Part shown: piece by piece, positions 19,683 to 37,897 of the stretch
Position numbering within the stretch: position 1 is the stretch's first letter
Layout: the number at the start of each line of letters is the position of its first letter
Sequence record: SRR31156797_3844
DNA: 54,638 nt
Reading direction: 5' to 3' (one strand)
Position numbers and translations under genes: made by a program
The notes under the pieces: generated by a model
Told to the model about the DNA's origin: nothing
Databases searched by the model: none
Seen by the model: the letters and a program-made list of their open reading frames with translations, nothing else

Positions 19683-22600
19683 ATGAAACATAGAATTACC
19701 TTGTTAATTTGTTTATTAACAATTTTAGGAATCAACCAAACGCAAGCGGCAGATTTAGGAGGAACAATTTCTTCAAACACCACCTTAACAGTTGACAATA
19801 GCCCTTATATTATTATTAACAATGTTACCGTTAATCCGGGCATAACTCTCACCATTGAACCGGGCGTAGAAGTTCGGTTTAATTCAAATTTTTACATCCA
19901 TGTTAGAGGTACCATGAATGCCTCTGAAGTAATTTTCACTGCTAATACAGATACACCAGTTGCCGGTTTTTACCAGGGAATATACATCGGGTATCAAGGT
20001 TATGCAGAATTTGCAGATGTATCGCTGAATAACTGTACAGTTGAATATGCTCAGCAAATGTTTGTACGAAAGGGATCACTTACCTTAACAAACAACTGTA
20101 CATTACAAAACTTCTCTGGATATGGAATTGATATTTATCAAAACGGAACACTGGACATTGACAATACAAGTGTTACCAGCACAAGTTATCCTATTTATTT
20201 CAGAGATACCAACGGCGGTAATTTTACAGTTGGTGAAAATGTTTCTTTAACCGGTAATACAAATGATTTCATCTTTATCGATTTTAGAGATTTGGATGAA
20301 GTATTTAATATGCCGGATGTTGGTATTCCTTATTATTACAACTCAGAACTTCGCATTTTAGAAAGCGGTCAGTTAAATATTGAGCCCGGTGCTGTACTGG
20401 AAGGAAATACCGGAGCTTATATTGCTGTAAACGGAATTATTAAAGCAATAGGTACCGAAGCCTCGCCTGTAACCTTTACAACAAGAGTCGGGAATAATTA
20501 TTGGCTTGGAATGAATATTAATAATGCTTCCAATGATAGTGAATGTTTACTAAAAAATTGTATCCTTGAAAATGCCACTTACGATAACAGGAGCTATTCT
20601 GCTTTAGGTATATTTGATGCTTCACCTGTGATTGACAGCTGTATTTTCCGAAACAACAATTACAATGTAGAAATTCAAGGACGTAGTTTACCTTCATTTT
20701 CAAACAACTCATTTGGTGCCTCAACAAGAGAATATTCATATCCATATAATATTTCAATGGATTGGAATGCCGAACCTTCATTTAGTGGCGACACACTTCA
20801 TTTTAACAATCTTGAGGCTCGTGCCATTGGAGTTATTGGCAATACGGTAACCAGCAATAGCCACTTACGCAAATTGAACTTTGTAGGCATTGATAATATT
20901 ACCTATTTGCTTACTGCAGATGTAACCATTGATGCTGCCGGATCTCTTGATGTTGATCCTGGAATTGTAATTAAATGTAACCAGCACGATTGGGATATAT
21001 TTGCCAATGGTCCACTAACAGGTATTGGATCGGCAGAAGAACCAATTATTTTTACACATCAGGCCGATGATGCATACGGAAATCCCTTTGATACTTACAA
21101 TAACGGAAGTAGTACCATAGGGAATTCAACCTCAGGTAGAATTTTCTTAAACAGCACGGAGCTATCTACCTTAGACAATTGGATCATAAAATACGCCGGA
21201 TATAGCAATGGTTATTATGGTGTTTATGTTCGGAATAATAATATTCTTCGTAATTCCGACATCACCAATAGTTATAGAGCGGTTTATTTTGGAGAAAGTG
21301 CTCAAATAATCAACAACGATTTTGAAGATATCAACTACTATCCCGTTAGCCGTTACTTTAATGAAGGAGAACCAACCCTAATAAGTAACACCATTAACAA
21401 TGTTACTTGTAATGGTATTAATCTGGTAGGTTTTGCTACTGACACAGCAACATTAACACCTATGAATTTTGCAGGATACAGCAACGTTGCTTATGTAATC
21501 GAAAGTAATAGAACCATTCCAACCAATGCCATCGTTAATGTTGACCCCGGTACAGTTATTAAATTCCAAAGCGGAGCATATTTATACATAGATGGTGGTC
21601 TTTCTGCCAATGGAACAAGCGGCGAGAAAATCATTTTCACTTCAATACACGATGATTCTGCTGCTGGAGATACCAATATGAACGGAACAGCTTCTGCTCC
21701 ATCATCTGGTAATTGGAATGGAATAACCTTTAATGCCGGATCGCTGGATAATATAAACCAAATCACCTATGCTGATATTCGCTATTTATATTATGGTTTA
21801 AACATAAATAGTTGTACGGTTGGAATAGACAATATGCTGATGAACTTTTCTTATCGCAACGGACTACTTATTTATGGCGATGCCAATCCTACCATTAGTA
21901 ATTCTCAATTTTACAATTTAGGAGCTGATCCAATTCATATGGATATGTTTGCAAGCCCAACATTTAGCAATAATACCGTTGCCAATGTTCCCCGAATTGC
22001 AATTAGTCTTCGCGGTCAAACAGTAAGCGGAACCGTTCCTATCAGAAGCTTTGCAGGCATCGACACCATTACTTATGTATTAAATGAGCATATGACAATT
22101 AATGATCATTTGATTATTCCGGCAGGTTTAACATTTAAATCAAACGGAGATACCAGATGGTATGTGAACGGAAGACTGGATATTTTAGGAACGGCTGACA
22201 AACCAGTTGTTTTTACCAGTTATCAGGACGATGCTTATGGATATCCAAAAGATTTAGAAATGAATGGACTTGGGACACAATATAACAGAGGATCTCATAT
22301 TTATTATTATGATGGAAGTGATGATAACAGTACGATTAGCCATGCAATTTTCCGATATACTTACACCAATGCGGTTAAATGCTATAACGCTTCTCCAACA
22401 ATTGAAAATTGCTTGTTTGAGAACTTTGCCCATCAGGGAATTTATTTGAATGGCTTAAGCACTGCAACTGTTAATAACTGTACTTTCAACAATATTGCAT
22501 ACCCATTACTTACTTCGCTTACCTCCTATCCGGGTAGCCATACAGGAAATATTATTTCTGGTTCTACAGGAAGAGGAATACGAATTTTAGATGAAACACA

Positions 22601-24173
22601 AACGCAAAATGTTACAGTAAGCAAGCATGATTTTGCAGGCGTTACCAATATACCATATATTATAGGAGATTACACCATTGGAACCAGTTCTGTAGTAACC
22701 ATCAATCCAGGCGTAGTCTTTAAGTTTGTGCCTAGCGGTGCATTGCGCGTTCATAATGGTTTAATCGCTGTTGGTACCGATTCTGAAAAGATTGTCTTCA
22801 CGGCCAGTACCGATGACTTTTTCGGTGGAGATACATATAATGATGGCGATTCTAACTTACCAAGCAGAACACACTGGTATGGTATTTACTTTTATAATGA
22901 AGCCATTGATGCCAATTGCCAGATGGATTACAATGTTATAAAACATGCCTCCAGCACCTACTATAACTGGGGAGCTGTAAACTTTGATAACTCATCGCCT
23001 AATATTAGTAATTGCCTTTTCGATAACAATCATTTTGGAATGATTTCCAGAAATAATTCCAATCCAAGTATTACCAATTGTGACTTTATAAACTTTCATC
23101 CTACACAAGGATATTCAATATGGAATTCAACTCCGGAATATACCATTGATGCGCCGAACTGCTGGTGGGGAGATGCTACCGGACCATATCATGCTACCTT
23201 AAATCCGGACGGACTTGGAAAAGCTGTTACCGATGGCGTTACTTTCACTCCATGGAATACAATATTAGGTAGTCCTGTTTTCGGTGATGTTAGTTTAAAT
23301 GGAGAAATCAAGCCCTATGATGCCTCTCTTATCTTACAACACGATGTAGGCAATATCACCTTAACTACGCAACAACAAACTGTAGCCGATGTATCTGGAG
23401 ATGCAAGCATTACAGCTTATGATGCCTCTTTAGTATTACAATATAGCATTGGTTTAATTACCAACTTTAATGACATCGTTGCTCCAATGACGATACTAAA
23501 ATCAGGTAATCCTAACCTTCTGACTATTGAAGCAGAAGATATTTATCCGGAAGGAACTGTGTTCAACATTCCGATTCGCCTCAGCAGCTCTGAAAATGTA
23601 AAAGCTGTTGGTTTAAAATTAAAATGTAATCCGGCTCATTTAAAACTATTAAATGTAACATCTGATGATATTTCAACAGGTACCATGTTAGCAAGTGGTT
23701 TTAATATGGTTAACGGAAATATTAATATCTCTATGGCCTCAGCCCATAGCCTTGATTTAAATCAGTCAACCATTTTATTACAATTTGAATTGATCAATCC
23801 GGCTGTTACCTTATCTAAGATTACACTTATTCAGGTAATGGCCAACGAAACTAATGTTGAGCACTACTTTGATATCACAGTTGTTCCTCCAGTTTCCACT
23901 TTAGTTGATGAATCAGAACAAGAAGCTGTCCAAGTTTTCTTTGTTGATGGAAACATGAAGATACAGGTACCAATCGACACAAGTATTCCTGAATCCACCA
24001 TCACGGTTACCGATTTAAGTGGAAGAACATTACATCAATGGTCGAGCAGCCAATTAGATGCTGGCGAATATAGTTACGACATTCCTGGAATTACTGATGA
24101 GAATTCAGCGATACTGCTGATCACAATCAGTAATAAGGAATTTAGCATAACTAAAAAAGTATCGGCACAATAG
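19683..24173 (+). CDS. Secreted right-handed beta-helix repeat protein with dockerin, cohesin-like domain and T9SS CTD (protein A)
   Basis: Signal peptide; five G.L.A.GT...(P/K)I.FT modules; beta-helix cap NCWWGDATGP; duplicated Ca-loop dockerin GDVSLNGEIKPYDASLILQ / ADVSGDASITAYDASLVLQ (about 23280-23468); cohesin-like sandwich (about 23520-23850); CTD-like end DLSGR...TKKV. Confidence 0.85.
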   Translation: MKHRITLLICLLTILGINQTQAADLGGTISSNTTLTVDNSPYIIINNVTVNPGITLTIEPGVEVRFNSNFYIHVRGTMNASEVIFTANTDTPVAGFYQGIYIGYQGYAEFADVSLNNCTVEYAQQMFVRKGSLTLTNNCTLQNFSGYGIDIYQNGTLDIDNTSVTSTSYPIYFRDTNGGNFTVGENVSLTGNTNDFIFIDFRDLDEVFNMPDVGIPYYYNSELRILESGQLNIEPGAVLEGNTGAYIAVNGIIKAIGTEASPVTFTTRVGNNYWLGMNINNASNDSECLLKNCILENATYDNRSYSALGIFDASPVIDSCIFRNNNYNVEIQGRSLPSFSNNSFGASTREYSYPYNISMDWNAEPSFSGDTLHFNNLEARAIGVIGNTVTSNSHLRKLNFVGIDNITYLLTADVTIDAAGSLDVDPGIVIKCNQHDWDIFANGPLTGIGSAEEPIIFTHQADDAYGNPFDTYNNGSSTIGNSTSGRIFLNSTELSTLDNWIIKYAGYSNGYYGVYVRNNNILRNSDITNSYRAVYFGESAQIINNDFEDINYYPVSRYFNEGEPTLISNTINNVTCNGINLVGFATDTATLTPMNFAGYSNVAYVIESNRTIPTNAIVNVDPGTVIKFQSGAYLYIDGGLSANGTSGEKIIFTSIHDDSAAGDTNMNGTASAPSSGNWNGITFNAGSLDNINQITYADIRYLYYGLNINSCTVGIDNMLMNFSYRNGLLIYGDANPTISNSQFYNLGADPIHMDMFASPTFSNNTVANVPRIAISLRGQTVSGTVPIRSFAGIDTITYVLNEHMTINDHLIIPAGLTFKSNGDTRWYVNGRLDILGTADKPVVFTSYQDDAYGYPKDLEMNGLGTQYNRGSHIYYYDGSDDNSTISHAIFRYTYTNAVKCYNASPTIENCLFENFAHQGIYLNGLSTATVNNCTFNNIAYPLLTSLTSYPGSHTGNIISGSTGRGIRILDETQTQNVTVSKHDFAGVTNIPYIIGDYTIGTSSVVTINPGVVFKFVPSGALRVHNGLIAVGTDSEKIVFTASTDDFFGGDTYNDGDSNLPSRTHWYGIYFYNEAIDANCQMDYNVIKHASSTYYNWGAVNFDNSSPNISNCLFDNNHFGMISRNNSNPSITNCDFINFHPTQGYSIWNSTPEYTIDAPNCWWGDATGPYHATLNPDGLGKAVTDGVTFTPWNTILGSPVFGDVSLNGEIKPYDASLILQHDVGNITLTTQQQTVADVSGDASITAYDASLVLQYSIGLITNFNDIVAPMTILKSGNPNLLTIEAEDIYPEGTVFNIPIRLSSSENVKAVGLKLKCNPAHLKLLNVTSDDISTGTMLASGFNMVNGNINISMASAHSLDLNQSTILLQFELINPAVTLSKITLIQVMANETNVEHYFDITVVPPVSTLVDESEQEAVQVFFVDGNMKIQVPIDTSIPESTITVTDLSGRTLHQWSSSQLDAGEYSYDIPGITDENSAILLITISNKEFSITKKVSAQ

Positions 24174-24182
24174 TCATTAACC

Positions 24183-24207
24183 GAAGAGAGGAACTTATCC
24201 TCTCTTC
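24183..24207 (+). other. Intra-operon stem-loop without U-tract
   Basis: Perfect 10-bp stem GAAGAGAGGA / TCCTCTCTTC with a 5-nt loop in the 50-nt gap between genes A and B. Confidence 0.8.
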
Positions 24208-24223
24208 ATAAATCATTAGCACT

Positions 24224-27200
24224 ATGGATACGTTTCGCCATTATATAAAGCTGTGTATACTGAGTTTGATTTTACTATCGAGCCCAGCTATATATGCACA
24301 GACGATCGAATTTAATATACAAGGTGCCAGTATTGAAGAACAAGATACTTTTGTGGTTGCCTTGCAAACAAGTACGGATCTTGCCGGAGAAGGTGTTTAT
24401 GCCTATCGATTCCAGGTCACTTATCCAACATCTTATTATGAATTTCTAGATGTTGATTCTGTTGGAAGCATGCTCGATTCATGGGGTTTGCCTACAATCA
24501 ATTCCAGCACTCCCGGTGCTTTAAGAATGTCGGGAGCAGGAGCTAATGCTCTAGAAGGAACGGGCGATGTAATTTATTTAAAATTCAGAGCCGTTCGTTC
24601 CGGGAATAATTATATTGGATTTGATAGTAACCAATCCTATGTGAATGAAGGAGCTCCTGCTTCCTCTTTTACCAGTGGATATATTACTGCTTCTGCCATC
24701 TCTTATCCAAATATAAGTCCGGATAGTGGACAAATGTTTGTGGGAGATGCCATCACTTTATCCGCTTCTGGAGGATTGGCGCCATACACCTACAGTTCAG
24801 CCAATAATGCCGTCGCTCTTATTGAAGATGACAATATACTCAGGGCTGTTGGCCCCGGATACACCAAAGCCTATGTTACAGATGACAATGGCAATATCAA
24901 TTACACCTCTGGAAGTTTTGATGTAAGAGGTGTTCGAATGAAGATACCTAATGACGTTACCGGATGGCCAACAGAAACCATTCTTCTTCCTTTGGAAATT
25001 GAGGTGGCTTCCGGAACGCAAATCTTTTCAGGTACCATTGAAATTTCCTTTCCTTCCGGAGTTACACCTTCTGAAGATCCGGTTCAGCAAGGAGATTTTA
25101 CAACCAGCCTTGAACGTAGGGTGATTGGCAGCAGACTTCATTTGACCTTTGCTTCATCTACTCCTATTACTGGTACAGGCGTTTTAGTATATATTCCTTT
25201 TGAAGCTATTAATTCGGGGAATCACTATATCGCATTTCAAAATACCTTGTTTGATGAGACTTTACTTTCGTTTAACACTAATGACTACATCAGAATTAGT
25301 ACACTACCTGTATTAAGCATTAGTCCAACAAGTGGATCTATATCATACGGAGAAACCATCAATTTGACCGTGAGTAATGGAAATCCTCCGTATACCTATG
25401 AGGTTTCAGATACCGATGTTGCTTCTGTTGATGAAAGTGGAGTAGTTACCGGAATATCAGGCGGTACTTTTAATGTTACTGCCACAGATAACTTTGGTGC
25501 CAGCATTACCACAGGTATATTTACGGTTTATGACCACACTCTGCAAATAAATAACACTGATGGTAATCTGGATGTAGATACAAGAGTAGCCATTAGTACT
25601 TCTCAATTACCAACAGGTAGGGATATTTACAGTTTTGAAGGTAACATCACCTTTAATACAAATCAGCTTGAACTTGTTAGTATAGAACCGCTCAACTCCA
25701 GTATGATTATTGAATCAATTGTAGAAGGCGGGAATATTCAGCTAGTAGGTGCCAGCACAAATCCAATTGATTTAAATGATGTATTTTATCTCAATTTCCG
25801 AATTAAGAATACCGTTCCTGTTTTAGGCACAAGCAGTGTTAATTTTGGTAGTTTTAGTTTAAACGAAGGACAGTTATTTAGCATACTTGACAATGGTGTT
25901 ATAACACGCGTAGAACAAGATTCTTATCGACCGGTAGCTGATGCTGGGAATAACTTTTCAGCCAACGAAAACACTAATATACAACTAGATGGATCCGGCT
26001 CCTATGATTTAGATGATGATCCGATCACTTATTTATGGACTGCACCGGAAGGAATCGTTTTAGACGATGCCACACTGGTTAATCCAAGTTTTGATGCGCC
26101 GGAAGTGAATCAAAATACTATTTTAACATTTAGCTTAATCACTAACGATGGCACCAGTGATTCTGATCCTTCAATGGTTGATGTAACCGTGCTTCAGGTT
26201 AACAAAGTACCAACCGCTCATGCCGGAGAAGATGCCTCTTATCCCGAAGGCAATAGCGTAAGTTTAGATGGTTCCGCTTCAAGCGACCCTGATGATCAGG
26301 AATTAATTTTCAATTGGGAATCACTGGATGGCATTGTTCTTTTCAATACGCACAGTGAAACACCTTCCTTTATTGCACCTTCTGTTGAGGACAATACCAG
26401 CTATCGTTTTAAATTAACTGTAAACGACGGGATAGCCGATTCTGAAGCAGATACGGTGACAATAGAAATTCTTCAGGTTAACCAGATACCAGTAGCTTTT
26501 GCAGGTTCTGATCAAACTATTAACGAAGGTGATCCGGTTCAACTGGACGGTTCTTTATCGCATGATCCAGATAATGATGCAATCACGTACTTGTGGACTG
26601 CACCTCCTGAAGTTACGCTATCGTCAAATACCATTGCACAACCGGAATTCACAGCACCTTTTGTGCACTATGATTCAACATTGGTATTTAGTCTGGTAGT
26701 AAATGACGGACAAGCCAACTCTGTTGCCGATGAAGTTCATATTTATGTAAAAAACATAGATATATTAAGTACAGAAGCTAATATACTTGGTATCACTTTA
26801 GCCAATATGTCTTCTGTAGATATTGACGAAGAGCAAGCTACAGCTGTTATGCATATGCCGTATGGTTACGATGTAAGAGACTTGGCTCCGGTATTTAATT
26901 TATCAGAATGGGCTAAAATCAATCCTATCGGAGGAACACATCGTGATTTTTCTATTCCGCAAACATATGTAGTTACAGCAGAGGATATGACCACCACAAA
27001 AACATGGACTGTGAGCGTTCATATTCCTGACGTAACCTTGAGTAGAAATATTTCAGCAGGTTGGAATATGTTATCATTACCTGTTATACCGAACAACCCG
27101 GCAATTGACGAAGTAATGAGCAGCTTAAGTTTTGAAGAGCTGGATTACATTAAATCTCCGTTTGCTTCGGCTACATGGTACAGTGGTTATGGCTGGTATG

Positions 27201-28180
27201 GTGATTTAGATGAATTCCCATATTTCCTTACAACAAAACTGTATAAAAATGTAACAGGTACCTGGGAAGTTACTGGTAAAGAAATCAATCCTACTTTGGA
27301 ATCCGTTCCGATAACATGGGGTTGGAACAGTTTACCTTACTTATTAAATGCAGATGCGGATATTAACGAAGCGATTATTCCTTCATCTATTCCAAACGGT
27401 AATGTACTTATAAAAGGGGAAGCTGGTGCTTCTGTTTATTATTCAGAATCCGGATGGACTGGTGATATTACACAATTGAACCTGATGCACGGATACAAAT
27501 TAAATGTGCAAACTTCTGGTTCTATTAGATACGATGCAGATGCAGTATCAGCTGGACAAGGCATAGCAGCTTTAAAAAGCACCAAGGAAGTCAATTCGTT
27601 CTATCAACAATATAGCTATTCAGCTAATATTATTGGAGAACTGGCCGATGCAAATGGGGCAGCTATTACCCAAAAGGGAGATTGTTTGATGGCATATAAT
27701 AATGGAGTATTATGCGGTAAAGCCAATGCTGTTTATGCTGGCGGTTTAAACCGATACATCTTTGTGCTGACATATTATGGTAACCATACTGATGAAAACA
27801 TCACGTTTAGAGCTCAGCATCAAGGCAAAGAGCTGTCTCTTGATCGTGCCATTTTATTTAAAGCAGATGATGTAATTGGAGGAGCCTATCATCCTGAAAT
27901 ATTAATCGCGCCTGTTAGTACAGGATCTATTTCAGAAGAATTGGAAAACACGCTAACAATTGCTCCTAATCCGGCAGATGATGTCCTTTATATTTACAGT
28001 ACACATCCTATTAAAAACAAGGTGATATACAATGCCACAGGTTCAATTGTATTGGAAGAAGACAATAACCAAAGTGCTGCCTCAATCAATATTAGTCAGC
28101 TACCTCCGGGAATATACTTTATAGAGGTTGAAACAGAAGCACAGGTTTATCTACATAAGTTCATTAAAAGAAGTAAGTAA
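24224..28180 (+). CDS. Scaffoldin-like T9SS protein: 3 cohesin-like, 2 Big_2, 3 PKD-like and further Ig-like domains, CTD (protein B)
   Basis: Signal peptide; three cohesin-like units (for example GVYAYRFQVTYPTSYYEF...GTGDVIYLKF, IYSFEGNITFNTNQLELVSI...FYLNFRI) alternating with Big_2 (ISP...GGLAPYTYSSANNAVA); three P.A.AG.D....LDGS.S.DPD...Y.W repeats; YVVTAED domain; paired GWN motifs; CTD IAPNPA...YNATG...LPPGIYFIEV...KFIK. Confidence 0.85.
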   Translation: MDTFRHYIKLCILSLILLSSPAIYAQTIEFNIQGASIEEQDTFVVALQTSTDLAGEGVYAYRFQVTYPTSYYEFLDVDSVGSMLDSWGLPTINSSTPGALRMSGAGANALEGTGDVIYLKFRAVRSGNNYIGFDSNQSYVNEGAPASSFTSGYITASAISYPNISPDSGQMFVGDAITLSASGGLAPYTYSSANNAVALIEDDNILRAVGPGYTKAYVTDDNGNINYTSGSFDVRGVRMKIPNDVTGWPTETILLPLEIEVASGTQIFSGTIEISFPSGVTPSEDPVQQGDFTTSLERRVIGSRLHLTFASSTPITGTGVLVYIPFEAINSGNHYIAFQNTLFDETLLSFNTNDYIRISTLPVLSISPTSGSISYGETINLTVSNGNPPYTYEVSDTDVASVDESGVVTGISGGTFNVTATDNFGASITTGIFTVYDHTLQINNTDGNLDVDTRVAISTSQLPTGRDIYSFEGNITFNTNQLELVSIEPLNSSMIIESIVEGGNIQLVGASTNPIDLNDVFYLNFRIKNTVPVLGTSSVNFGSFSLNEGQLFSILDNGVITRVEQDSYRPVADAGNNFSANENTNIQLDGSGSYDLDDDPITYLWTAPEGIVLDDATLVNPSFDAPEVNQNTILTFSLITNDGTSDSDPSMVDVTVLQVNKVPTAHAGEDASYPEGNSVSLDGSASSDPDDQELIFNWESLDGIVLFNTHSETPSFIAPSVEDNTSYRFKLTVNDGIADSEADTVTIEILQVNQIPVAFAGSDQTINEGDPVQLDGSLSHDPDNDAITYLWTAPPEVTLSSNTIAQPEFTAPFVHYDSTLVFSLVVNDGQANSVADEVHIYVKNIDILSTEANILGITLANMSSVDIDEEQATAVMHMPYGYDVRDLAPVFNLSEWAKINPIGGTHRDFSIPQTYVVTAEDMTTTKTWTVSVHIPDVTLSRNISAGWNMLSLPVIPNNPAIDEVMSSLSFEELDYIKSPFASATWYSGYGWYGDLDEFPYFLTTKLYKNVTGTWEVTGKEINPTLESVPITWGWNSLPYLLNADADINEAIIPSSIPNGNVLIKGEAGASVYYSESGWTGDITQLNLMHGYKLNVQTSGSIRYDADAVSAGQGIAALKSTKEVNSFYQQYSYSANIIGELADANGAAITQKGDCLMAYNNGVLCGKANAVYAGGLNRYIFVLTYYGNHTDENITFRAQHQGKELSLDRAILFKADDVIGGAYHPEILIAPVSTGSISEELENTLTIAPNPADDVLYIYSTHPIKNKVIYNATGSIVLEEDNNQSAASINISQLPPGIYFIEVETEAQVYLHKFIKRSK

Positions 28181-31100
28181 TGAAAAATAATAACGATACA
28201 TACCAATTCAGGAATTTGAAAAAGTCTGTTTCCGGAAGGGTAATCTATAAAAAAGGGTTGCTGCTTGTTGTGAGTTTATTGATGAACTTGTATGCTTTGG
28301 CAACCATTCAACTTCCGAATATACCATCACAGGCTGAATTCAATCGACAATATGAGTTCAATGCTGAATATGCCATTCGGGTTGATCTCAGTGGATCATA
28401 CTTAGAATCCGGTGCTATTATAGCCTATGTGGGAAATCAGATCAGGGGAGCACAAACTACCTCTGAAACATTTCCTTTAACCGGAGATAAAGTCTACAAA
28501 CTACGTATTTATAGCAATAGCGCCTCGGGCGAAACTATTACCTTGAGATATTATGATATTTTCAATGACAAAATTTATGAAATCACGGAAGACATAAGTT
28601 TTGAAGCTGATGCGATACCGGATTATAGTGCACCGGAAATATTGCATGCATTCTGTCCACCTCCGGTCGTAGCCACTTTAATAAATCCGGCGAATGATGC
28701 TATTGATGTAGATACGAGAGTAAACTTCAATTGGGAAGGTTCTGCCGAGAATTCATACTATGGCTTATTATTGTGGAAGAACGGTGATTCGGAACCAGGT
28801 ACGCCATACATTTCGAACATTACCGGTACATATCGAACTGTTTACAATTTGCAAAATGCTACCGATTATCTATGGCGAATCATATCATATAATGGTTGCA
28901 ACAGCGATACCAGTAGCATCGCTAATTTTACCACCAGAGGTTTGCCGGATTTAACAGTCAGTGCTGTTTCGCCTCCGGCTACAGTTGAGTCTGCTACCTT
29001 ATTCAACATTCAGTTTACGGTTGATAATATTAATGTTGGCGCTACTGTTGAAAATAGTTGGTACGATGCTGTTTATATTTCAAGTGATGATATATATGAC
29101 AATAACGACTTGTATTTGGGTAGAGTGCGACATACCACTCAGGTTTTAGGCAACAGTAATTACATAGGTTCTATGGATGCTTTGCTTCCTGCAGAATACG
29201 ATGGTTCCTATTATATTATTGTGCGATCTGATGTGTACAACAATGTAAACGAAACCAATAACGACAACAACCTTGGTATTACTGCCGAAGCTATCACAGT
29301 GAACCGAAAAGCTTTACCAGATATTGAAGTTACTGGCATTTCTGCAACAGAGAGCCTGGTGCAACCAGGTGATAGTGTTACCATTTCCTGGACAGTTGAA
29401 AATAACACAGGCGTTGACGCTGTTGGTGGATGGACTGAAAAAGTATCATTAAATACGCTTACCGGTTTAAAAGTACAATTAAGCGGAACACCTTTATACG
29501 AAGGAAATTTAAACGCGGGTGAATCAGTTGGCAGATCTGCACGCTTTAAAATTCCTAATACCTTACCTTTTTCAGGTGATACACATCTTGAGGTTTCCTT
29601 ATTTCCTGGTAACGACCTAATAGAAGAACCAGGAGGCGAAAGCAACAATAATTTAGTTTCCACTTCAACCATAAATATCGGAAGCCAGCTTTACATCGAC
29701 ATTCCAACTAGTTCATTGGTTGAAAACTCAAGTACACAACTCAGATGTCGTGTTTCACGGAGTAGTAACCCGGCCACACCTTTAGAGGTGACTTTAAATA
29801 CTGATGTAGCCGATCAAATCAGCATACCAACCACGGTTACAATTCCTTCGAGCAGTTATTCTTCTATTTTTTATTTGTCAGTTATTGATAATGAAATTTT
29901 AGATGGATCAAGAGATGTAGGCATCACAGCAACAGCAGCTTTGCATAACGATACCACTGTAGTATTTACCGTATATGATAACGAAGTAGTTTCGTTAAGT
30001 GCTGCATTTAACGAAACAGAGGCAAACGAAGGCGATGCACTTACATTAACCATAAGTCGCAACCTGGTAACTGATCAGGAAGTAGTGGTTGATTTGTATT
30101 CAACATCTACACGCCAATGGACTTTTGATAAAAAAGCGACTATTCCTGCTAATGAACCATCCGTAGATATTACTGTAAATATTACTGATGATGATATAGC
30201 AGAATTAACTGCTCCGGTAACCATGCGCATCAGCTCACCGGGCATGAATCAAACCGAAAGCATTGTCAACATTATAGATGATGACATACCGGGTATAGAA
30301 CTGGAAATATTTACAGATACCATTTCAGAATCCGGCGGTCCTTATGCCACTTGGGGTATCCTTAGAAAAACAGATACAGAAGACAGTTATGTAAGAGTTC
30401 GTTTATCGACGAATTATAACGATGCGCTTTTCTTCCCTGCCGAAGTTACTTTGCCGGTTGGAACACCTCAAAAACAATTTAATCTGGGCGCTATTGACAA
30501 CGGATTAGTTGATGGTACCAGAGATGTAATTCTAACAGGTGCGGTTTATTTATCTTCCTGTAATTGTAATACAACAGCTGCTAATGGCGGTGTTGTTTCC
30601 GGTACTATTACGGTTTTAGATAATGATGGACCAACGCTGTCCGTAAGCTTTAATCCTTTATCATTACCTGAAGGAAAAGAAAATGCTGGTCAGGTTACTG
30701 TTGTAAGAAACACACCTACAGACAGTCCACTTACAGTTAATTTATTTCATAATGATGCCACAGAGTTAAGTCTGCCAGCCACCTTAACTATTCCTCAAGG
30801 TGAAATATCGGCCTTTGCTAATATATCTACCATTAACGACGACGAGGAAGATGGCAATCAACAAGTTACTATCCGGGCAGAAGCAGAAGGCTTTACACCG
30901 GGTGTGGGTTGGATATATGTTACAGATCAGAACAAACCGGATCTGCATCCGCTTGATTTGACGATAAGTAGTCCAACCGTGGTAACAGGTGATCAACTAG
31001 AAGTACGATGTCAGATACTGAATCAGGGACTAGCTCCTTCTCCAACAGGTTTTGAGGTGAGTGTTTTCCTTTCCAGTGATGCTCTGGTTGATGATAATGA

Positions 31101-34100
31101 TGACGAACTTGGACGATTCATGTTGGATGCCCCAATTATTCCGGGAGAATTCACTGAATTTTGGGAATTGGTAACTGTTCCTGATAAAACAGGAGATTAC
31201 AATATATTATTAAAAGTAAATCCTAATTCTGCCCATACCGAGCTTATTTATGTCAACAACACCACCACTCCGGTGGCTGTTGAATTAGTTCCCGGATATA
31301 ATGGTATGGCTACGGTTGATGAAGAACAATTCATTAAACCAAGTGAAATTACCATATACGGATCAGCTACTTCTATACATGGTGAAGCTATGCCAAATGT
31401 AGGCTTAGATGTTTATTTGATTACAAACGGCATTCGTCAGGAAATAGAAGTGACCACAGATGAATCGGGTAATTATACGACTACCTTTGAACCACTTGAA
31501 GGCAGTGCCGGACACTATATTGTTGGCGCTTGTTATCCAGATCAAAAACTGGATGAAATACAGGATGAGTTTGATATTTTAGGTATGAAACGTCTGGGTG
31601 ACCGTTGGGTTGTTTGGGATATTCTGTACAATGTGGACAATACCGGTAACATCACCCTTCAAAACTTAAGTAATGTGGATTTAACCGAGGTTAAATTCAT
31701 TACCGGAGAAGTTCCTGAGGGCTTTGAATTAGAAATTGATACAATAGATGTATTGCCTGGTGGCGGTACGGCTCAATTCTCTTATAACATCAGAGGAACC
31801 AGCCTCACCGAAAGCAACGACTATCTGCAAGTTCCTGTTCTGTTAGTATCGAACGAAGGGGTTGAACTTAGCTTTAATGTATACTATTATTGCCAGGCTC
31901 AACAAGGACATATCAAGTCGTTACCTTCAAGTATTAACACTACTATGACCAAAGGAAAATCTCGTTTATACGAGTTCAGAATCTTTAATGATGGTGCAGG
32001 TGAAACAGGTGAAGTAGCCATCGATATTCCGGATTTTGAATGGATGAGTTTATTAACTACAGACACCATTCCAACTATTCTTTCCGGAGACACCACAACA
32101 GTTACATTACAGTTATCGCCAGGCGATGATATTCCTTTGAATACGCCGATTTCAGGAAATATCGCTATTAATGTAGATAATGGAAATAACATTTTTATTC
32201 CTTATCGCATTGAGGCCGTTTCTGAAGAAACTGGAAACCTGATTGTAGATGTGATTGATGAGTATACCTATTACACCGATGAAGCACCTCACGTGGCCAA
32301 TGCTCAGGTTGTTATTCGACATCCTTTTAGCGGTGTTATTATAGCTGAAGGGTTTACCAATTCAGATGGTTTATTCACCGTTAATAATATTCCTGAAGGT
32401 ACTTACCGTATGTACATACAGGCCGATAAGCACGAAGGTTATCAGGATGTTATTTACATTGATCCGGGTAGAACCAACACCCAAAGTATATTCCTTAGTT
32501 TCCAGGCCATCACTTATACCTGGGAAGTAATTCCGACTGAGATTGAAGATGAATATCAAATAGACCTCATCATGGAATTCGAAACCAACGTACCGGTTCC
32601 AGTGGTGACTATTGAAATGCCGAAAACGATGCCTGCACTGATTGGTGATGAAACCTACACCTTCGCAATTACTCTAACAAACAAAGGGTTAATAACAGCA
32701 AATGATGTAGAACTAACTTTACCAACAGATGATGAATATGAATTTGTAAGCAATTACTCAGTTATGGATCTGTTGGCTCAACAAGCTATTCAGGTTCCTG
32801 TAATTATGCGACGCAAAGATGCACAAACGATAAAAAGTGCCAGTGCGACACAATCCTCCGAAAGTTGTTCTGATTATGTCATCACCGTATACTCATACTA
32901 TTGTGGTGATAATGGCAGATGGCAACAAGGAAGTGCCATGTTTAGCTACACCGGAAGAAGTTGTACCGGAACCGGATGGGGCGACCCATTTGGCGGCGGC
33001 GGTGGTGGAGGCTACGGCGGCGGCCCATCGCTTGGTGGCGGTGGCGGCGGTGGCCTGTCCTCATCAGGAGGTACACCTTCTATCTCATCCAATACAACCA
33101 GTTGCGACGAGTGTATTGAAGCTCTTGCTGTGAATGCCATTGGATGTGCCGGCCCTTACGGTAATGCATTTGCATGTGGATACTCATTTGGCGATGGTGT
33201 TTCTCTAAAAGATGTTGTAATGTGCGGACTTGGATTTACTCCTATTGGTTGTCCTTTGGCTATTTTGGATGCACTCATTACTTGCTATGGTTCTATCGGA
33301 GGCGGCCCTCCGGGAGGTTTTGGTGGTTTTGCAGCGCCTAACCTAAAAAGCACTCAGGCTGGAACAATTCCTCCAATAATTGATCAGGCAGCTATTGACC
33401 TGTCCTACATTCAGTTTGAAATGGATGCATTCTTCAACTATCTCGATCAGTATTTTGGAATCCTTGATTGGAAAACAAAAGAAAGCATTATCGACTTTGT
33501 AGATCAGGTTACTAATTATATTGATAATCAACAACCTATTTCTGCATCTGAAATGGAAGCCATTTTGGTTGCCATGGCAGATACCGATATTACACCGGAA
33601 GAAATAGCAGCCTTTGTTGCCCGATGGAATTCAACTGTTGAAGCCTGGAATGCCGGCATCTATTCTCCAACAGAAGAATATCCCGACATCGTGGATCAAT
33701 CGGCTTTAAATAAGAGTTACGAAGACGTACAAACAGTTATAGACTATACTGAAAGCAGAGACTTTTATGATGTAGATGAGATGTACAACACAAGCATCAC
33801 AACTATCGAGGAACAAATTGATGAAAAACGAGGTAGCGTGTGTGCTTCTGTTACTATCAAAATTTCGCAAAAATTGACTATGACTCGCGAAGCCTTTGAA
33901 GGTACATTAACCATCTTTAATGGTAACGAAACAACTCCAATGGAAGAAATCGAGCTGAATCTTGAAATCAAAGACGAAAACGGAAGATTAAGCAATGATT
34001 TGTTTGAAATTGAAACCAAAGCGCTGGATATTCTTACCGGAATAGATGGAACAGGTACTTTAGGTGCCAACCAAAAAGGTAGTGCTACAGTATTATTTAT

Positions 34101-37100
34101 ACCAGAAAAAGGTGCTGCCCCAACTGTACCGAAGAGTTATTCATTCGGAGGTAGTTTCTCTTACTTAGATCCATTTACCGGAACTACAGTAACCAAACCA
34201 TTATTCCCGGTTACGCTGGATGTACATCCTTCGCCTGATTTATTCTTGCATTACTTTATGCAACGTGATATTTTAGGTGACGATGCACTTACCGAAAATG
34301 TGGTTGAACCAATTGTTCCGGCAGAATTAGCTGTCATGATTGAAAACAACGGATATGGTCAGGCCAAAAATGTAGTCATCGAATCGACTCAGCCTGAAAT
34401 CATTGAAAATGAAAAAGGATTGGCGATTCACTTTGAGTTAATCGGTTCTAACCTTCAGGGTGAACCTACGCAACTTGGACTAATTAATATTGACTTTGGA
34501 CATATTGATCCAATGACAACCAAAATTGGACAATGGTGGTTTACTTCTGATTTATTGGGTCACTTTATCAATTACGAAGCACATGTTACCCACCTCGACA
34601 GCAGAGGTAATCCGGACTTAAGTCTGGTAAGCGGTGCCGAACTGCATGAGTTAATAAAGAGTATTCGTATTTACGGCACGCAGGACGACGGCATTAACGA
34701 CTTCCTGGTAAATGAAGTGCAGGATTCAAAAGAAACTCCTGATGCCATTTACATTTCTCAGGGTCAGGTAGTGCTGGATGTTGAACAGGCTCGTACTGCT
34801 ATTATGACCGGTTTCCCAACTACGGGAAGCACATACTTATTTGCCTCACCGGAACACATTGGATGGAATTATCTGAAGATTAATGATCCAGGACATGATA
34901 ACTTCAGTATTGAAAGTGTTACTCGTGTGAGCGATGGTCAGGAAATTCCTTTAGATAATATGTGGTTAACACACGTTACCTTACCGGATGGTAAAGAACC
35001 TGTTTACGAAGACAAATTGCACTTTGTAGATAATTTCCCATCCATGGAAACCGAAGAGTATATCATTACATGGAAAGTAAATCAGGGTGATGCACCTAAG
35101 ATTGTTTCCATAACCGGAACTCCGGATCATATGGTTACAGAACAGGTTCCTGGTGCAAGGGTTATCTTTAATAAGCCAATTGATGCCAGTACTTTCGACC
35201 ATGAAGATCTGACCTTAAGGTTACAAGGTGGAAATGATATAATGGATGCATCGGTTACGGTTACCCCTGTGGATGCCTATACTTTTGATATTGATTTAAC
35301 TTCGTTAACTACCGGAGATGGTTATTATGTATTAACCGTTCAGGCTAACGAAATCTATGATCAGTTTGGAATTAGTGGCACCGAAGGTAAGTTTGTTTCA
35401 TGGACACAATTCCTTGGTGCTCCAGCTGTTCAGTCCTTTATCGGATTACCGGAAACCTTGGCTGGTCCTCCATTCAATACACTGGAAATTGAATTCAATA
35501 TTCCGGTAGATGTAGCTACTGTTACACCGGAAAGCTTTGCGATTAGTCACTATGGTAGTCTGGTTGATGGTAATTTATCTGTAACTCATGTGAGTGGCGA
35601 TACTTTGTTCTTATTGTCCGGTTTCGCTGACTTTATGCTGTTTGATGGTGAATATACGCTTGAAATAGATTTAACCTCTATTGAAAGCAGTGAAGGAACC
35701 GCCGGATTAATTCAACAAACGGTAAGCTGGAAAGTAGATACAACAGCTCCTGAGGTGGTTGAAATAAGACCAAGTACCGACAATGGTTACGATTGGCAGC
35801 ATTATGCCGAAATGGAAGTAGAGTTTTCTGAAGGCATCACCGCCTTTACCATTGAGGAAATTGAACTTTGGTTAGATGATGTGCAACAACCATTATCGCA
35901 ACTTCATGTGGACGAACTGGATTACAACAGGTATCTGTTATCTCAATTCAGATTATTGACTTACCATGAGGGTAATTATACTTTAATTTTTCATATGGAA
36001 CAGATTAGCGATAGTGCCGGACTTACAGGAAGTGAACCTTATGAATTCACATGGACAGTAGACCGTTCCGGTGCAGCTCCGGTTGAGAACTTGAGAATAG
36101 CTCCTGACCTGGGATTCTCTGATGCCGATGGTATAACTTCAACCAAAGTATTGGATGTCATAATGGATGTTCCGGATAATGTGGACGACATTGAGATATA
36201 CCAAAACGACAATGGAACTTTAACGCAATTGGCTGTTGAAGAAGGCGTATCAACAGGTGCATTAACCATTCCGGTTGTATTACCAACAGGTGGTCATATG
36301 AAGATTGAAGCCCATAGTGTGAATGCTACCAGTGATCCGGCCATAGCCTCCATACCTGTATTTGTTGACGAGGCTCCGTTAACCGCTCAACTTAAAGGCA
36401 TTCCAACTACAACAGTTGCCAGCAATCCTTCTGCAATTGAAATTGTTTTCTCCAAAAACATTATGGAAACAACAATTGGAAGTGATATTGTCAGCTTAAC
36501 CATTGACAATGTACCTGTACCATTAAGTGGATTGGCCTTTACGCAGGTTTCTGATTCCATTTTTACCTTATCCGGTTTAGATTTATTGCCAGTGGTTACA
36601 GGTAAATATGTGATGAGCGTAAATATTTCATCCTTACATAAAAACTCCAGCGGAATTGCGGGAGTAGGCATAGTAAATGGCCAATGGTCAGTTTCTAGTG
36701 CTAACCAGGCTCCTGTTGCCAATGCTGGTGAGGATATGCTGATTTCTTCTTCAGGTACTTACAATTTGGATGCATCCGGTTCATCCGATCCTAACAACGA
36801 TGCATTAAGTTATACCTGGTATGCTCCTGAAGGATTTGTGTTAGATGATATCAATGCTGAAATGCCGGAATTTACGGTTGATGAAGCTGTGGCTGATGGT
36901 GTGTATACCTTTATTTTATCTGTAAAAGATGGAAAAACAACCAGTACCGATAAAGTGGATGTGGTAGTTTCCTTAACTACAGATATCAATAAAGTAGAAC
37001 CATCTGTTGATTTCACTTTATTCCCTAATCCTTCCAGTGGATTAATTTATATTGTGGAAGGTGATGTTCAGATTCTTAAAATTTTGATTTTTGACGCTGA

Positions 37101-37242
37101 TGGACGTGCCGTATTTAATGCACAGCCAGCAGAAGACGAAACCATAGAGTTGAATCTGCAGCATTTAGCAAGCGGTATATATCATATCATTATTGTAAGC
37201 GATGAAGATATGGTTACGAAAAAAGTAGTCATTAGTAAGTAA
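28180..37242 (+). CDS. Giant (3020 aa) T9SS-secreted multidomain protein: CARDB x3, Calx-beta-like x4, carboxypeptidase-regulatory-like, Cys/Gly-rich insert, Ig-like, PKD, CTD (protein C)
   Basis: Start overlaps the stop of gene B (TAATG); signal peptide; CARDB starts LPDLTV / LPDIEV / KPDLHP; Calx-beta-like IDNEILDG, TDDDIAE, IDNGLVDG, INDDEEDG; PKD NQAPVANAGED; CTD LFPNPSSG...FDADGR...LASGIYHI...KKVVI. Confidence 0.85.
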   Translation: MKNNNDTYQFRNLKKSVSGRVIYKKGLLLVVSLLMNLYALATIQLPNIPSQAEFNRQYEFNAEYAIRVDLSGSYLESGAIIAYVGNQIRGAQTTSETFPLTGDKVYKLRIYSNSASGETITLRYYDIFNDKIYEITEDISFEADAIPDYSAPEILHAFCPPPVVATLINPANDAIDVDTRVNFNWEGSAENSYYGLLLWKNGDSEPGTPYISNITGTYRTVYNLQNATDYLWRIISYNGCNSDTSSIANFTTRGLPDLTVSAVSPPATVESATLFNIQFTVDNINVGATVENSWYDAVYISSDDIYDNNDLYLGRVRHTTQVLGNSNYIGSMDALLPAEYDGSYYIIVRSDVYNNVNETNNDNNLGITAEAITVNRKALPDIEVTGISATESLVQPGDSVTISWTVENNTGVDAVGGWTEKVSLNTLTGLKVQLSGTPLYEGNLNAGESVGRSARFKIPNTLPFSGDTHLEVSLFPGNDLIEEPGGESNNNLVSTSTINIGSQLYIDIPTSSLVENSSTQLRCRVSRSSNPATPLEVTLNTDVADQISIPTTVTIPSSSYSSIFYLSVIDNEILDGSRDVGITATAALHNDTTVVFTVYDNEVVSLSAAFNETEANEGDALTLTISRNLVTDQEVVVDLYSTSTRQWTFDKKATIPANEPSVDITVNITDDDIAELTAPVTMRISSPGMNQTESIVNIIDDDIPGIELEIFTDTISESGGPYATWGILRKTDTEDSYVRVRLSTNYNDALFFPAEVTLPVGTPQKQFNLGAIDNGLVDGTRDVILTGAVYLSSCNCNTTAANGGVVSGTITVLDNDGPTLSVSFNPLSLPEGKENAGQVTVVRNTPTDSPLTVNLFHNDATELSLPATLTIPQGEISAFANISTINDDEEDGNQQVTIRAEAEGFTPGVGWIYVTDQNKPDLHPLDLTISSPTVVTGDQLEVRCQILNQGLAPSPTGFEVSVFLSSDALVDDNDDELGRFMLDAPIIPGEFTEFWELVTVPDKTGDYNILLKVNPNSAHTELIYVNNTTTPVAVELVPGYNGMATVDEEQFIKPSEITIYGSATSIHGEAMPNVGLDVYLITNGIRQEIEVTTDESGNYTTTFEPLEGSAGHYIVGACYPDQKLDEIQDEFDILGMKRLGDRWVVWDILYNVDNTGNITLQNLSNVDLTEVKFITGEVPEGFELEIDTIDVLPGGGTAQFSYNIRGTSLTESNDYLQVPVLLVSNEGVELSFNVYYYCQAQQGHIKSLPSSINTTMTKGKSRLYEFRIFNDGAGETGEVAIDIPDFEWMSLLTTDTIPTILSGDTTTVTLQLSPGDDIPLNTPISGNIAINVDNGNNIFIPYRIEAVSEETGNLIVDVIDEYTYYTDEAPHVANAQVVIRHPFSGVIIAEGFTNSDGLFTVNNIPEGTYRMYIQADKHEGYQDVIYIDPGRTNTQSIFLSFQAITYTWEVIPTEIEDEYQIDLIMEFETNVPVPVVTIEMPKTMPALIGDETYTFAITLTNKGLITANDVELTLPTDDEYEFVSNYSVMDLLAQQAIQVPVIMRRKDAQTIKSASATQSSESCSDYVITVYSYYCGDNGRWQQGSAMFSYTGRSCTGTGWGDPFGGGGGGGYGGGPSLGGGGGGGLSSSGGTPSISSNTTSCDECIEALAVNAIGCAGPYGNAFACGYSFGDGVSLKDVVMCGLGFTPIGCPLAILDALITCYGSIGGGPPGGFGGFAAPNLKSTQAGTIPPIIDQAAIDLSYIQFEMDAFFNYLDQYFGILDWKTKESIIDFVDQVTNYIDNQQPISASEMEAILVAMADTDITPEEIAAFVARWNSTVEAWNAGIYSPTEEYPDIVDQSALNKSYEDVQTVIDYTESRDFYDVDEMYNTSITTIEEQIDEKRGSVCASVTIKISQKLTMTREAFEGTLTIFNGNETTPMEEIELNLEIKDENGRLSNDLFEIETKALDILTGIDGTGTLGANQKGSATVLFIPEKGAAPTVPKSYSFGGSFSYLDPFTGTTVTKPLFPVTLDVHPSPDLFLHYFMQRDILGDDALTENVVEPIVPAELAVMIENNGYGQAKNVVIESTQPEIIENEKGLAIHFELIGSNLQGEPTQLGLINIDFGHIDPMTTKIGQWWFTSDLLGHFINYEAHVTHLDSRGNPDLSLVSGAELHELIKSIRIYGTQDDGINDFLVNEVQDSKETPDAIYISQGQVVLDVEQARTAIMTGFPTTGSTYLFASPEHIGWNYLKINDPGHDNFSIESVTRVSDGQEIPLDNMWLTHVTLPDGKEPVYEDKLHFVDNFPSMETEEYIITWKVNQGDAPKIVSITGTPDHMVTEQVPGARVIFNKPIDASTFDHEDLTLRLQGGNDIMDASVTVTPVDAYTFDIDLTSLTTGDGYYVLTVQANEIYDQFGISGTEGKFVSWTQFLGAPAVQSFIGLPETLAGPPFNTLEIEFNIPVDVATVTPESFAISHYGSLVDGNLSVTHVSGDTLFLLSGFADFMLFDGEYTLEIDLTSIESSEGTAGLIQQTVSWKVDTTAPEVVEIRPSTDNGYDWQHYAEMEVEFSEGITAFTIEEIELWLDDVQQPLSQLHVDELDYNRYLLSQFRLLTYHEGNYTLIFHMEQISDSAGLTGSEPYEFTWTVDRSGAAPVENLRIAPDLGFSDADGITSTKVLDVIMDVPDNVDDIEIYQNDNGTLTQLAVEEGVSTGALTIPVVLPTGGHMKIEAHSVNATSDPAIASIPVFVDEAPLTAQLKGIPTTTVASNPSAIEIVFSKNIMETTIGSDIVSLTIDNVPVPLSGLAFTQVSDSIFTLSGLDLLPVVTGKYVMSVNISSLHKNSSGIAGVGIVNGQWSVSSANQAPVANAGEDMLISSSGTYNLDASGSSDPNNDALSYTWYAPEGFVLDDINAEMPEFTVDEAVADGVYTFILSVKDGKTTSTDKVDVVVSLTTDINKVEPSVDFTLFPNPSSGLIYIVEGDVQILKILIFDADGRAVFNAQPAEDETIELNLQHLASGIYHIIIVSDEDMVTKKVVISK

Positions 37243-37261
37243 TAACACATACCGTTTAGAA

Positions 37262-37304
37262 ACAAAGAGGTTGTACTTTATGGGTGCAGCCTCTTTGTGT
37301 TTTG
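37262..37304 (+). terminator. Terminator of the A-B-C operon
   Basis: 15-bp stem ACAAAGAGGTTGTAC / GTGCAGCCTCTTTGT (two G-U pairs), 7-nt loop, then GTTTT. Confidence 0.75.
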
Positions 37305-37344
37305 TAAGGATGAAAACAGAGTGAATTTTAAGTATTGATAGGCT

Positions 37345-37648: not shown

Positions 37649-37799
37649 ACCATTGCTTAGCAAAATATTTAGATGTTGTTGTACAGATAAAGAATCTGTT
37701 AAATTAAATAGGTGGAACTAAACACAATTGAAGCAATTACTGAAAATAGGCATATTCGTAATTTGAAATTACTATTACCGTTTATTTGCGAATTGGAGC

Positions 37800-37838
37800 A
37801 AAAAAATAAAGCAGTAAAAAATCATCTTTTACTGCTTT
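37800..37838 (-). terminator. Terminator of the acyltransferase operon
   Basis: 12-bp stem AAAGCAGTAAAA / TTTTACTGCTTT with an A-run on its left side (U-tract on the minus strand). Confidence 0.8.
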
Positions 37839-37897
37839 TACTTTATAAGAGACTTAATCGTCTCCAATCAATATATGATTAATGTTCCAGGTCAATA

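Follow-up and report, generated by a model that had tools for sequence, protein, structure and literature searches.

A conserved three-gene operon of Saccharicrinis encodes a candidate cohesin-dockerin surface complex linked to type IX secretion

Introduction

What is understood of cohesin and dockerin pairs comes, to our knowledge, almost entirely from the cellulosomes of Gram-positive anaerobes, which they hold together. What, then, do such modules do in a diderm bacterium, in an operon without a recognizable enzyme? The question is raised by three adjacent genes, here called A, B and C, at positions 19683 to 37242 of a 54,638-nucleotide stretch of DNA (sequence record SRR31156797_3844; the whole stretch is referred to as the window). 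An initial annotation, made by a model from the letters alone, had described them as a cellulosome-style assembly exported by a type IX secretion system (T9SS); all three genes lie on the plus strand, in one operon, where that annotation had placed them. The host is a marine Saccharicrinis (Marinilabiliaceae, Bacteroidota), and the nearest genome, that of an uncultured Saccharicrinis sp. (G001), shares 98% amino acid (aa) identity with it over the trio.

With middling confidence, we propose that A, B and C form one self-contained cell-surface complex of T9SS-bearing Bacteroidota. What is new here is a closed three-gene set with one dockerin and four divergent cohesins, linked to T9SS and conserved from Saccharicrinis to a metagenome-assembled genome (MAG) of the Chlorobiota. 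If the parts bind as proposed, "orphan" non-cellulosomal cohesins would gain a function, abundant marine and sediment Bacteroidota would bear a new class of large surface structure, and protein engineers would have a compact natural cohesin-dockerin set in which one plug faces four sockets that may differ in specificity.

Results and Discussion

The operon combines one dockerin with four cohesins

Protein A contains a two-loop dockerin, as had been noticed in the initial annotation. The Dockerin_1 family (PF00404; cut-off 22.9 bits) matched A with 25.6 bits over the whole protein and with 32.0 bits over the isolated segment (aa 1201-1254), and a profile of the A family matched the solved dockerins 4uyp_B/4uyq_B at E = 1.1e-9. 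The two calcium loops, DVSLNGEIKPYD and DVSGDASITAYD, have D, N or S at positions 1, 3 and 5 and D at position 12, and each is followed by a helix, the identical YDASLxLQ. Across 79 sequences, D10, S12, N14, D21 and D55 never vary and D44 and S46 hardly ever do, and PF00404 was matched by 78 of the 79 A orthologues.

The cohesin-like domain that had also been reported in A is confirmed through its family. In the window, this segment had no Pfam match; the A family profile matched the solved cohesin 2xdh_A at E = 1e-5, hhalign aligned the segment with the cohesins of B at 96.9-98.3% probability, and Cohesin (PF00963) was matched by 23/79 A orthologues and by the divergent A' proteins of loci L022 and L023 (45.0 and 44.2 bits).

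The N-terminal 540 aa of protein B read cohesin-Big_2-cohesin-Big_2-cohesin, followed by three PKD domains, a DUF5018-like immunoglobulin (Ig) domain, about 300 aa without a family and a T9SS type A C-terminal domain (CTD). PF00963 (cut-off 24.1 bits) matched whole B with 39.1 bits in two stretches, while cohesin 2 as an isolated segment had no Pfam match and spacer 1 gave a weak Big_2 match in the window itself. With a 66-sequence profile of the B N-terminal family, each of the three domains matched solved cohesins, so that the earlier description of three cohesin-like domains with Big_2 between them holds, and Cohesin was found in 65 and Big_2 in all 66 family members. The structure 2xdh, labelled "COHESIN" and presumably the non-cellulosomal cohesin of Archaeoglobus fulgidus, was the best match in the PDB for both cohesin 2 of B and the cohesin of A.

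A and B are strictly linked, and B and C are recurrently fused

In the window, a gap of 50 nucleotides (nt) separates A from B, the stop codon of B (TAA) overlaps the start codon of C (ATG) as TAATG, and a terminator-like hairpin (37262-37298) begins 20 nt past the stop of C. The open reading frame (ORF) positions and the 17-pair stem of this hairpin thus bear out the three-gene operon, with its gap, overlap and end terminator, that had been described at the outset.

We scanned one genome per GTDB species with a profile of the A C-terminal part; of the resulting 434 pattern hits 396 were confirmed and the best 80 loci were kept, and their domain layout was read with hidden Markov models (HMMs) built from the window family. 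A protein with beta-helix, dockerin and cohesin (and in some cases a CTD) was present in all 80 loci. Three loci end at a contig edge after A; in the 77 with downstream DNA, the next gene always encodes cohesin-Big_2-cohesin-Big_2-cohesin, at a distance of -11 to 174 nt. These 77 loci comprise 42 with A-B-C, four with a B-C fusion (one of them cut), 17 with A-B and no C, and 14 in which B is cut by the contig end, so that C is present or fused to B in 46. The expectation that the trio would co-occur in relatives was therefore borne out, without exception for A and B and in those 46 loci for C.

Three of the fusions (L072, L081 and L084) encode a single protein of 3228-3236 aa that joins B aa ~24-372 (cohesin 1, Big_2 and cohesin 2) to C aa 159/170-3020, and further fusions with Cohesin, Big_2 and CARDB, of 3230-3249 aa, occur in the protein collection. 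Because such Rosetta-stone fusions join them, B and C are likely to act together.

The carriers include Plebeiibacterium, Prolixibacteraceae, Draconibacterium, Maribellus, Sunxiuqinia, Mariniphaga, Carboxylicivirga, Paludibacter and Lentimicrobiaceae, in addition to Candidatus (Ca.) Symbiothrix, a termite-gut MAG, and a Chlorobiota MAG. Within the genus Saccharicrinis, 9 of 23 genomes contain the N-terminal part of B; seven of these have a syntenic A-B-C trio at 52-70% identity, and the other two have a divergent pair of A' (~1760 aa) and B' (~660 aa) without C. When the order was sampled evenly, 17/401 genomes (14/227 genera) had the A C-terminal module at E <= 1e-20. The system is widespread but patchy. 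Among the candidates scored in the protein collection, 320 clusters of the A type and at least 1850 of the C type reached E <= 1e-10, and their names are generic only: "T9SS type A sorting domain-containing", "dockerin type I repeat-containing", "right-handed parallel beta-helix repeat-containing", "CARDB domain-containing" and "hypothetical"; many A homologues there carry the precomputed Pfam accession PF28492.1. Saccharicrinis carchari, a cultured species, is a carrier (proteins P0006 and P0127), which makes the question directly testable.

One full dockerin per genome indicates a closed set

The genome-wide dockerin search that the initial annotation had suggested was run on six genomes with the trio. 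In five of them (G001, G002, G014, G018 and G019), A is the sole full-length PF00404 match and the remaining matches are half-motifs. Two half-motifs of G001 were considered as dockerins and rejected, one lying in the barrel of a TonB-dependent receptor and the other in a frame without any other Pfam match. The strongest PF00963 matches in the trio genomes fell in B, with one additional sub-threshold match in another frame in each of G002 and G018; the PF00963 scan of G014 gave no match. The sixth genome (G017) has, separate from its trio, an extra small locus (G017:C1:1392284-1404821) where a 354-aa frame matches the dockerin family three times in tandem and a 238-aa frame close by matches cohesin.

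Since A holds the only full dockerin in five of the six genomes, the trio appears to be a closed set of one plug and four sockets and not an enzyme-recruiting system. The cellulosome-style recruitment proposed initially is thus not supported, as there is nothing else in these five genomes to recruit. Two A-B copies on different contigs occur in some MAGs (L032/L039, L033/L045, L036/L037, L038/L057, L055/L056 and L091/L100); with an expected total of two dockerins and eight cohesins per genome, such MAGs pose a question of specificity.

The trio carries T9SS signals and is predicted to assemble at the surface

The presence of T9SS in a diderm host was examined at the genome level in G001, which encodes SprA (SprA_N 597.6 bits, 2458-aa frame) and gave 124 type A CTD matches (TIGR04183), among them the ends of B and C, in agreement with the initial annotation. 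The N-termini of A, B and C resemble Sec signal peptides, as judged by eye. At the C-terminal end, B and C pass TIGR04183 (cut-off 23 bits), whereas the end of A gave FlgD_ig alone in the window, sub-threshold at 16.5-21.5 bits, and had no direct match to TIGR04183. Por_Secre_tail (PF18962) was matched by 52 of 79 aligned A-orthologue ends, and we regard the end of A as a probable divergent CTD, recognized through orthologues. Of the CTD-like ends claimed for all three proteins, those of B and C therefore stand directly, and that of A is probable by way of its orthologues. The trio resembles T9SS type A cargo, which combines a signal peptide, a passenger and a CTD, in that B and C pass TIGR04183 and SprA is encoded in the nearest genome; it differs in the probable, divergent CTD of A.

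From these observations we infer an assembly in which each binding step, the surface anchoring and the function are predictions. A, B and C would leave the cell by Sec and then by T9SS via their C-terminal domains and, by analogy with other type A cargo, would be left on the outer surface; surface retention of type A cargo is established for that family. A would be a long rod, built from six copies of a beta-helix module and ending in the only dockerin of the genome, and this calcium-loop dockerin would plug, in a calcium-dependent manner, into at least one cohesin, the likeliest targets being on the N-terminal cohesin-Big_2-cohesin-Big_2-cohesin arm of B. The cohesin of A may let A molecules chain. 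B would couple to C, a stalk of 3000 aa, elsewhere by gene fusion and here probably by non-covalent contact between two copies of a domain that we call X.

The X domain is a stretch of ~100 aa without a Pfam family that B has at its end and C at its start. Both copies are absent from the B-C fusions, and because of this absence we take the X domains as the likely non-covalent joint between B and C. An X-related stretch also occurs in an 814-aa protein whose cluster lies upstream of A in 10 loci (e.g. L043:1255-3699).

No catalytic domain was recognized in A, B or C with Pfam and NCBIfam, or with Foldseek on the A and B models, and no carbohydrate-binding module (CBM) was recognized in B (Pfam scans of the whole protein and of segments) or in C (Pfam). 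The initial observation that no glycoside hydrolase (GH) is recognizable thus extends to other catalytic domains, by family as well as fold searches. Since no enzyme is recognizable in the complex, its function is most likely adhesion, polymer binding or the building of a surface fibril or matrix, and not catalysis.

Several points weigh against this assembly. C is missing from the 17 A-B loci. The case for a link between X domains consists of their homology and their absence from the fusions, and it is weakened because cohesin 3, the PKD domains and all remaining parts of B are absent from the fusions as well. A, B and C each end in a CTD, probable in A, and separate anchoring would make cohesin-dockerin links not obviously needed. 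The end of A is absent from the 124 TIGR04183 matches of G001. Finally, PL6 alginate lyases are the top fold match of A, and the beta-helix is also the fold of lyases and hydrolases.

A more detailed picture is that of a hitherto undescribed T9SS-assembled surface organelle, in which one highly conserved dockerin hub would serve four anciently diverged cohesins and long A rods, single or chained through the cohesin of A, would sit on the B arm, which X domains or gene fusion would couple to C, giving a fixed adhesive fibril that recruits no enzymes. This specific version we regard as doubtful.

Protein A is more probably a rod than an enzyme

Approximately 1150 aa of A form a right-handed beta-helix, which the initial annotation had not mentioned. 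Pfam Beta_helix (PF13229) matched A with 82.2 bits in four stretches, and mutual alignment of the modules places the residues that 46 orthologues conserve at equivalent module positions. An AlphaFold2 (AF2) model of aa 1-1192 (pLDDT 90.9, pTM 0.69) is all-beta with short strands. Foldseek gave five matches in the PDB at E <= 1e-3, all weak and to generic beta-helix proteins, which were split between the PL6 alginate lyases 7dmk_C (3e-4) and 5gkd_A (5.3e-4) and the adhesin Ag43 (7koh_B, 4.7e-4, prob 0.98). The TM-scores of these matches were 0.11-0.24 (0.11-0.15 for the PL6 top match) at an identity of ~10%.

A C-terminal stretch of B was modelled in the same way. The AF2 model of B aa 846-1245 (pLDDT 89.0, pTM 0.82) is all-beta, and its first Ig-like domain gave the sole specific Foldseek match, to the N-terminal domains of Bacteroides surface glycan-utilization proteins (3hbz, 3e-8; levan utilisome 8a9y_G, TMt 0.76, root-mean-square deviation 1.7 Å over 84 columns). 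There was no catalytic or CBM match among the Foldseek matches listed for this region, and a protein atlas search with aa 935-1245 (best score 0.94) returned hypothetical proteins only.

These fold matches bear on an alternative in which the trio is a minimal polysaccharide-degrading machine: the beta-helix of A, of pectate-lyase fold, would be a lyase or hydrolase that is held by cohesin-dockerin links to substrate-binding B and C, as a one-enzyme analogue of the cellulosome. Apart from PL6, the Foldseek matches of A include GH87, GH55 and tailspike depolymerases; the carriers, judged by record titles, are marine and sediment polysaccharide degraders; and the likeness of the B Ig-like domain to glycan-utilization proteins would also fit. 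However, the TM-scores are low and Ag43 scores equally, A has no CAZy-type Pfam match, conservation is spread over six equivalent modules and forms no single distinctive cluster, and B and C have no recognized CBM. We consider an enzymatic A unlikely and, guided by the model, favour a structural or adhesive rod, because no CAZy-type HMM matched, the fold matches are weak and split, and conservation repeats six-fold. Pfam and NCBIfam gave neither a CAZy-type nor a peptidase family match in A, B or C.

The cohesins of B are the likelier partners of the dockerin

The four cohesins are mutually homologous by hhalign (96.9-99.5% probability) and show no similarity to each other in BLASTP, and each B cohesin is conserved position by position across species. 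Judging by these alignments, the four diverged anciently. The B cohesins are mutually divergent yet conserved in position, and unlike near-identical scaffoldin repeats in this respect; this suggests different roles for them and leaves the initial idea that B binds up to three copies of A unsupported in the form given. In contrast, the dockerin is the most conserved module of the system (mean pairwise identity 0.68; 52% of its columns reach 80% conservation), followed by the B cohesins (0.37-0.44), and the A cohesin comes last (0.30; 6% of columns). Because the dockerin is the most conserved module and both its calcium loops show little or no variation among 79 sequences, we infer that it may be a hub constrained by several partners, and that the B cohesins are likelier to bind it than the A cohesin. 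A complex prediction of B aa 26-565 with two calcium ions and the A dockerin, made without alignments and without controls, gave ipSAE values of 0.01 and 0.00 and is evidence neither way.

It could instead be that the dockerin binds the cohesin of its own protein, either in cis as a clasp or in trans in head-to-tail chains, and that the B cohesins bind something else or act as spacers. Dockerin and cohesin adjoin each other in A in 80/80 loci, and proteins with both modules exist in known cohesin-dockerin systems. This idea seems improbable to us, given the contrast between the least conserved A cohesin and the most conserved dockerin, and it leaves the strict pairing of genes A and B (77/77) without explanation. 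In one locus (L104), the A-cohesin model had no match and the model of B cohesin 3 matched at the same position.

That A, B and C are three independent, co-transcribed T9SS surface proteins, with cohesins as beta-sandwich spacers and the dockerin as a calcium-stabilized linker, would fit the secretion and anchoring domain found on each, but is very improbable in view of A-B adjacency across distant lineages, recurrent B-C fusions, extremely conserved dockerin helices, and a dockerin and cohesins that stand together in one operon and are absent from the rest of the genome.

The proposed complex differs from known cohesin-dockerin systems

The proposed A-B-C complex shares with the clostridial cellulosome, built on scaffoldins such as CipA, a type I dockerin with two calcium loops, several cohesins on one non-catalytic protein and a surface location, and the trio modules find their best sequence matches among solved cohesins and dockerins of cellulosomes. 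In contrast, the trio has one dockerin protein instead of dozens and no recognized GH, carbohydrate esterase, polysaccharide lyase or CBM; its cohesins are anciently diverged instead of near-identical scaffoldin repeats; and its diderm host would export and anchor by T9SS CTDs and not by S-layer homology domains or sortase.

Cohesins and dockerins are not confined to cellulolytic Bacillota; elsewhere they often occur together with beta-helix, PKD or CARDB-type modules, and some proteins contain a cohesin as well as a dockerin. Non-cellulosomal modules in archaea and bacteria were reportedly surveyed by Peer et al. in 2009. The trio differs from these proteins as a fixed, widely conserved operon with a defined architecture, T9SS signals and B-C fusions, and it is probably a non-cellulosomal cohesin-dockerin system that forms an adhesive or structural surface complex. 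A shares the right-handed parallel beta-helix fold with the self-associating adhesins Ag43 and TibA and with the PL6 alginate lyases; the resemblance is one of fold only, since A has no autotransporter barrel and consists of six repeated modules of ~190 aa.

In the literature on dockerin, cohesin, T9SS and the carrier taxa, supplements excepted, we found no description of this operon. The closest precedent for T9SS together with cohesin-dockerin modules is the predicted cellulosome-like system of Ca. Stygibacter (Cloacimonadota), in which a CTD-bearing cohesin scaffoldin is accompanied by several dockerin enzymes (PMC8542988). In that account, dockerins are carried by GH18, GH57, S8/S53 and C25 peptidases and the scaffoldin has CBMs (PMC8542988), whereas the dockerin of the trio is on a single non-enzymatic beta-helix protein. 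Dockerins have also been reported in rumen Bacteroidetes (PMC6487960).

Protein C and remaining features of the locus

The coordinates of all features are given in Table 1.

Table 1. Features of the A-B-C operon, in window coordinates.
Feature	Position	Strand	Description and evidence
Gene A	19683..24173	+	1496 aa; signal peptide, six beta-helix modules, dockerin, cohesin, divergent CTD-like end; ORF and translation, Pfam
A aa 25-1165, beta-helix	19755..23177	+	Six tandem ~190-aa right-handed beta-helix modules; motif period, mutual alignment, AF2 model
A aa 1198-1262, type I dockerin	23274..23468	+	Two calcium-loop/helix repeats, DVSLNGEIKPYDASLILQ and DVSGDASITAYDASLVLQ; PF00404
A aa 1275-1400, cohesin	23505..23882	+	Family profile, hhalign, orthologue Pfam matches
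A aa 1405-1496, probable divergent T9SS CTD-like Ig domain	23895..24170	+	Orthologue ends; FlgD_ig below cut-off
10-bp stem-loop, A-B gap	24183..24207	+	RNA fold -16.2 kcal/mol, z -3.85; no U tract after it
Gene B	24224..28180	+	1318 aa, scaffoldin-like protein; ORF and translation, Pfam, NCBIfam
B aa 27-160, cohesin 1	24302..24703	+	PF00963 24.1 bits, equal to cut-off; profile vs 1g1k_A 1.9e-5, also 2vn5_A
B aa 161-236, Big_2-like spacer 1	24704..24931	+	hhalign 99.7% to spacer 2; profile vs intimin Ig domains 4e-5
B aa 237-362, cohesin 2	24932..25309	+	Profile vs 2xdh_A 1.3e-8, 6kg8_A 3.6e-6; hhalign 99.5% to cohesin 1
B aa 363-436, Big_2 spacer 2	25310..25531	+	PF02368 34.3 bits
B aa 437-562, cohesin 3	25532..25909	+	PF00963 28.4 bits; profile vs 5nrm_A/5nrk_A 6.4e-5
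B aa ~563-845, three PKD domains	25910..26758	+	K319L-like_PKD 98.7 bits, 3 stretches; PKD_4 71.9 bits
B aa 846-1126, Ig-like (DUF5018-like) domain and familyless beta-sandwich	26759..27601	+	AF2, Foldseek
B aa 1127-1228, X domain	27602..27907	+	hhalign, B end vs C start, 97.7%, E 2.1e-12, 98 columns
B aa 1246-1316, T9SS type A CTD	27959..28171	+	TIGR04183 50.6 bits; PF18962 46.9 bits
Gene C	28180..37242	+	3020 aa, CARDB-rich giant; ORF and translation, Pfam
C aa 55-156, X domain	28342..28647	+	hhalign to B aa 1127-1228; part absent from B-C fusions
C aa 2947-3018, T9SS type A CTD	37018..37233	+	PF18962 48.5 bits; TIGR04183 36.1 bits
Terminator-like hairpin closing the operon	37262..37298	+	17-pair stem, 6 GC pairs, then T-rich tail

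Pfam and NCBIfam recognized in C, in addition to its type A CTD, CARDB (62.7 bits in three stretches), CarboxypepD_reg, Big_5 and PKD domains. The initial description of C as a CARDB/Calx-beta protein thus holds for CARDB, whereas Calx-beta (PF03160) scored 18.8 bits (E = 0.0017, segment aa 601-900) and stayed below its cut-off of 27. A 35-sequence profile of C aa 1-1950 had 0 matches to PDB sequences at E <= 0.05, and the best score of a protein atlas search with aa 1450-2500 was 0.77, to a "hypothetical protein". Within C, aa ~1560-1740 (window 32860-33400) are Cys-rich, with eight Cys invariant in 35 sequences and poly-Gly runs between them; an acidic region of ~200 aa, helix-prone as judged by eye, follows, and neither stretch had a family or PDB sequence match.

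Two proteins, P0219 (5188 aa) and P0243 (5155 aa), have a C-like body that corresponds to C aa ~372-2934 at 42-43% identity, preceded at the N-terminus by ~2200 aa of a right-handed beta-helix repeat different from the A modules. They were considered as A-C fusions and rejected, as at E <= 0.01 the A-module HMM did not match their repeats. In some lineages, beta-helix arrays thus seem to be presented on C-type stalks through a covalent link.

The stem-loop in the A-B gap sits directly 3' of the stop of A. A structured gap (z <= -2 against mononucleotide shuffles) was found in 38 of the 56 related loci in which the A-B gap is at least 25 nt; a further 20 related loci have gaps below 25 nt and stand outside the 56 scored. 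This stem-loop may be an attenuator or stabilizer that gives more A than B and C.

The operon is flanked by housekeeping genes encoding GHL10, RlmN, and GNAT and acyltransferases, and by the MraZ/MraW dcw cluster. Nine window neighbours of the trio were checked in the related loci, and none recurs beside it outside L025; because no window neighbour recurs with the trio in other lineages, the operon appears to be self-contained. GC content is 0.365-0.418 in the operon region (20001-38000), 0.307-0.371 in the upstream flank and ~0.39 in the downstream dcw cluster. These values and the patchy presence of the trio in the genus (9/23 genomes) are compatible with gain and loss. Split genes were seen in two related loci: in L092 the A-like gene (992 + 779 aa) and the B-like gene (172 + 666 aa) are both split, as is B in L062 (934 + 284 aa), and these are frameshifts, assembly errors or decaying copies.

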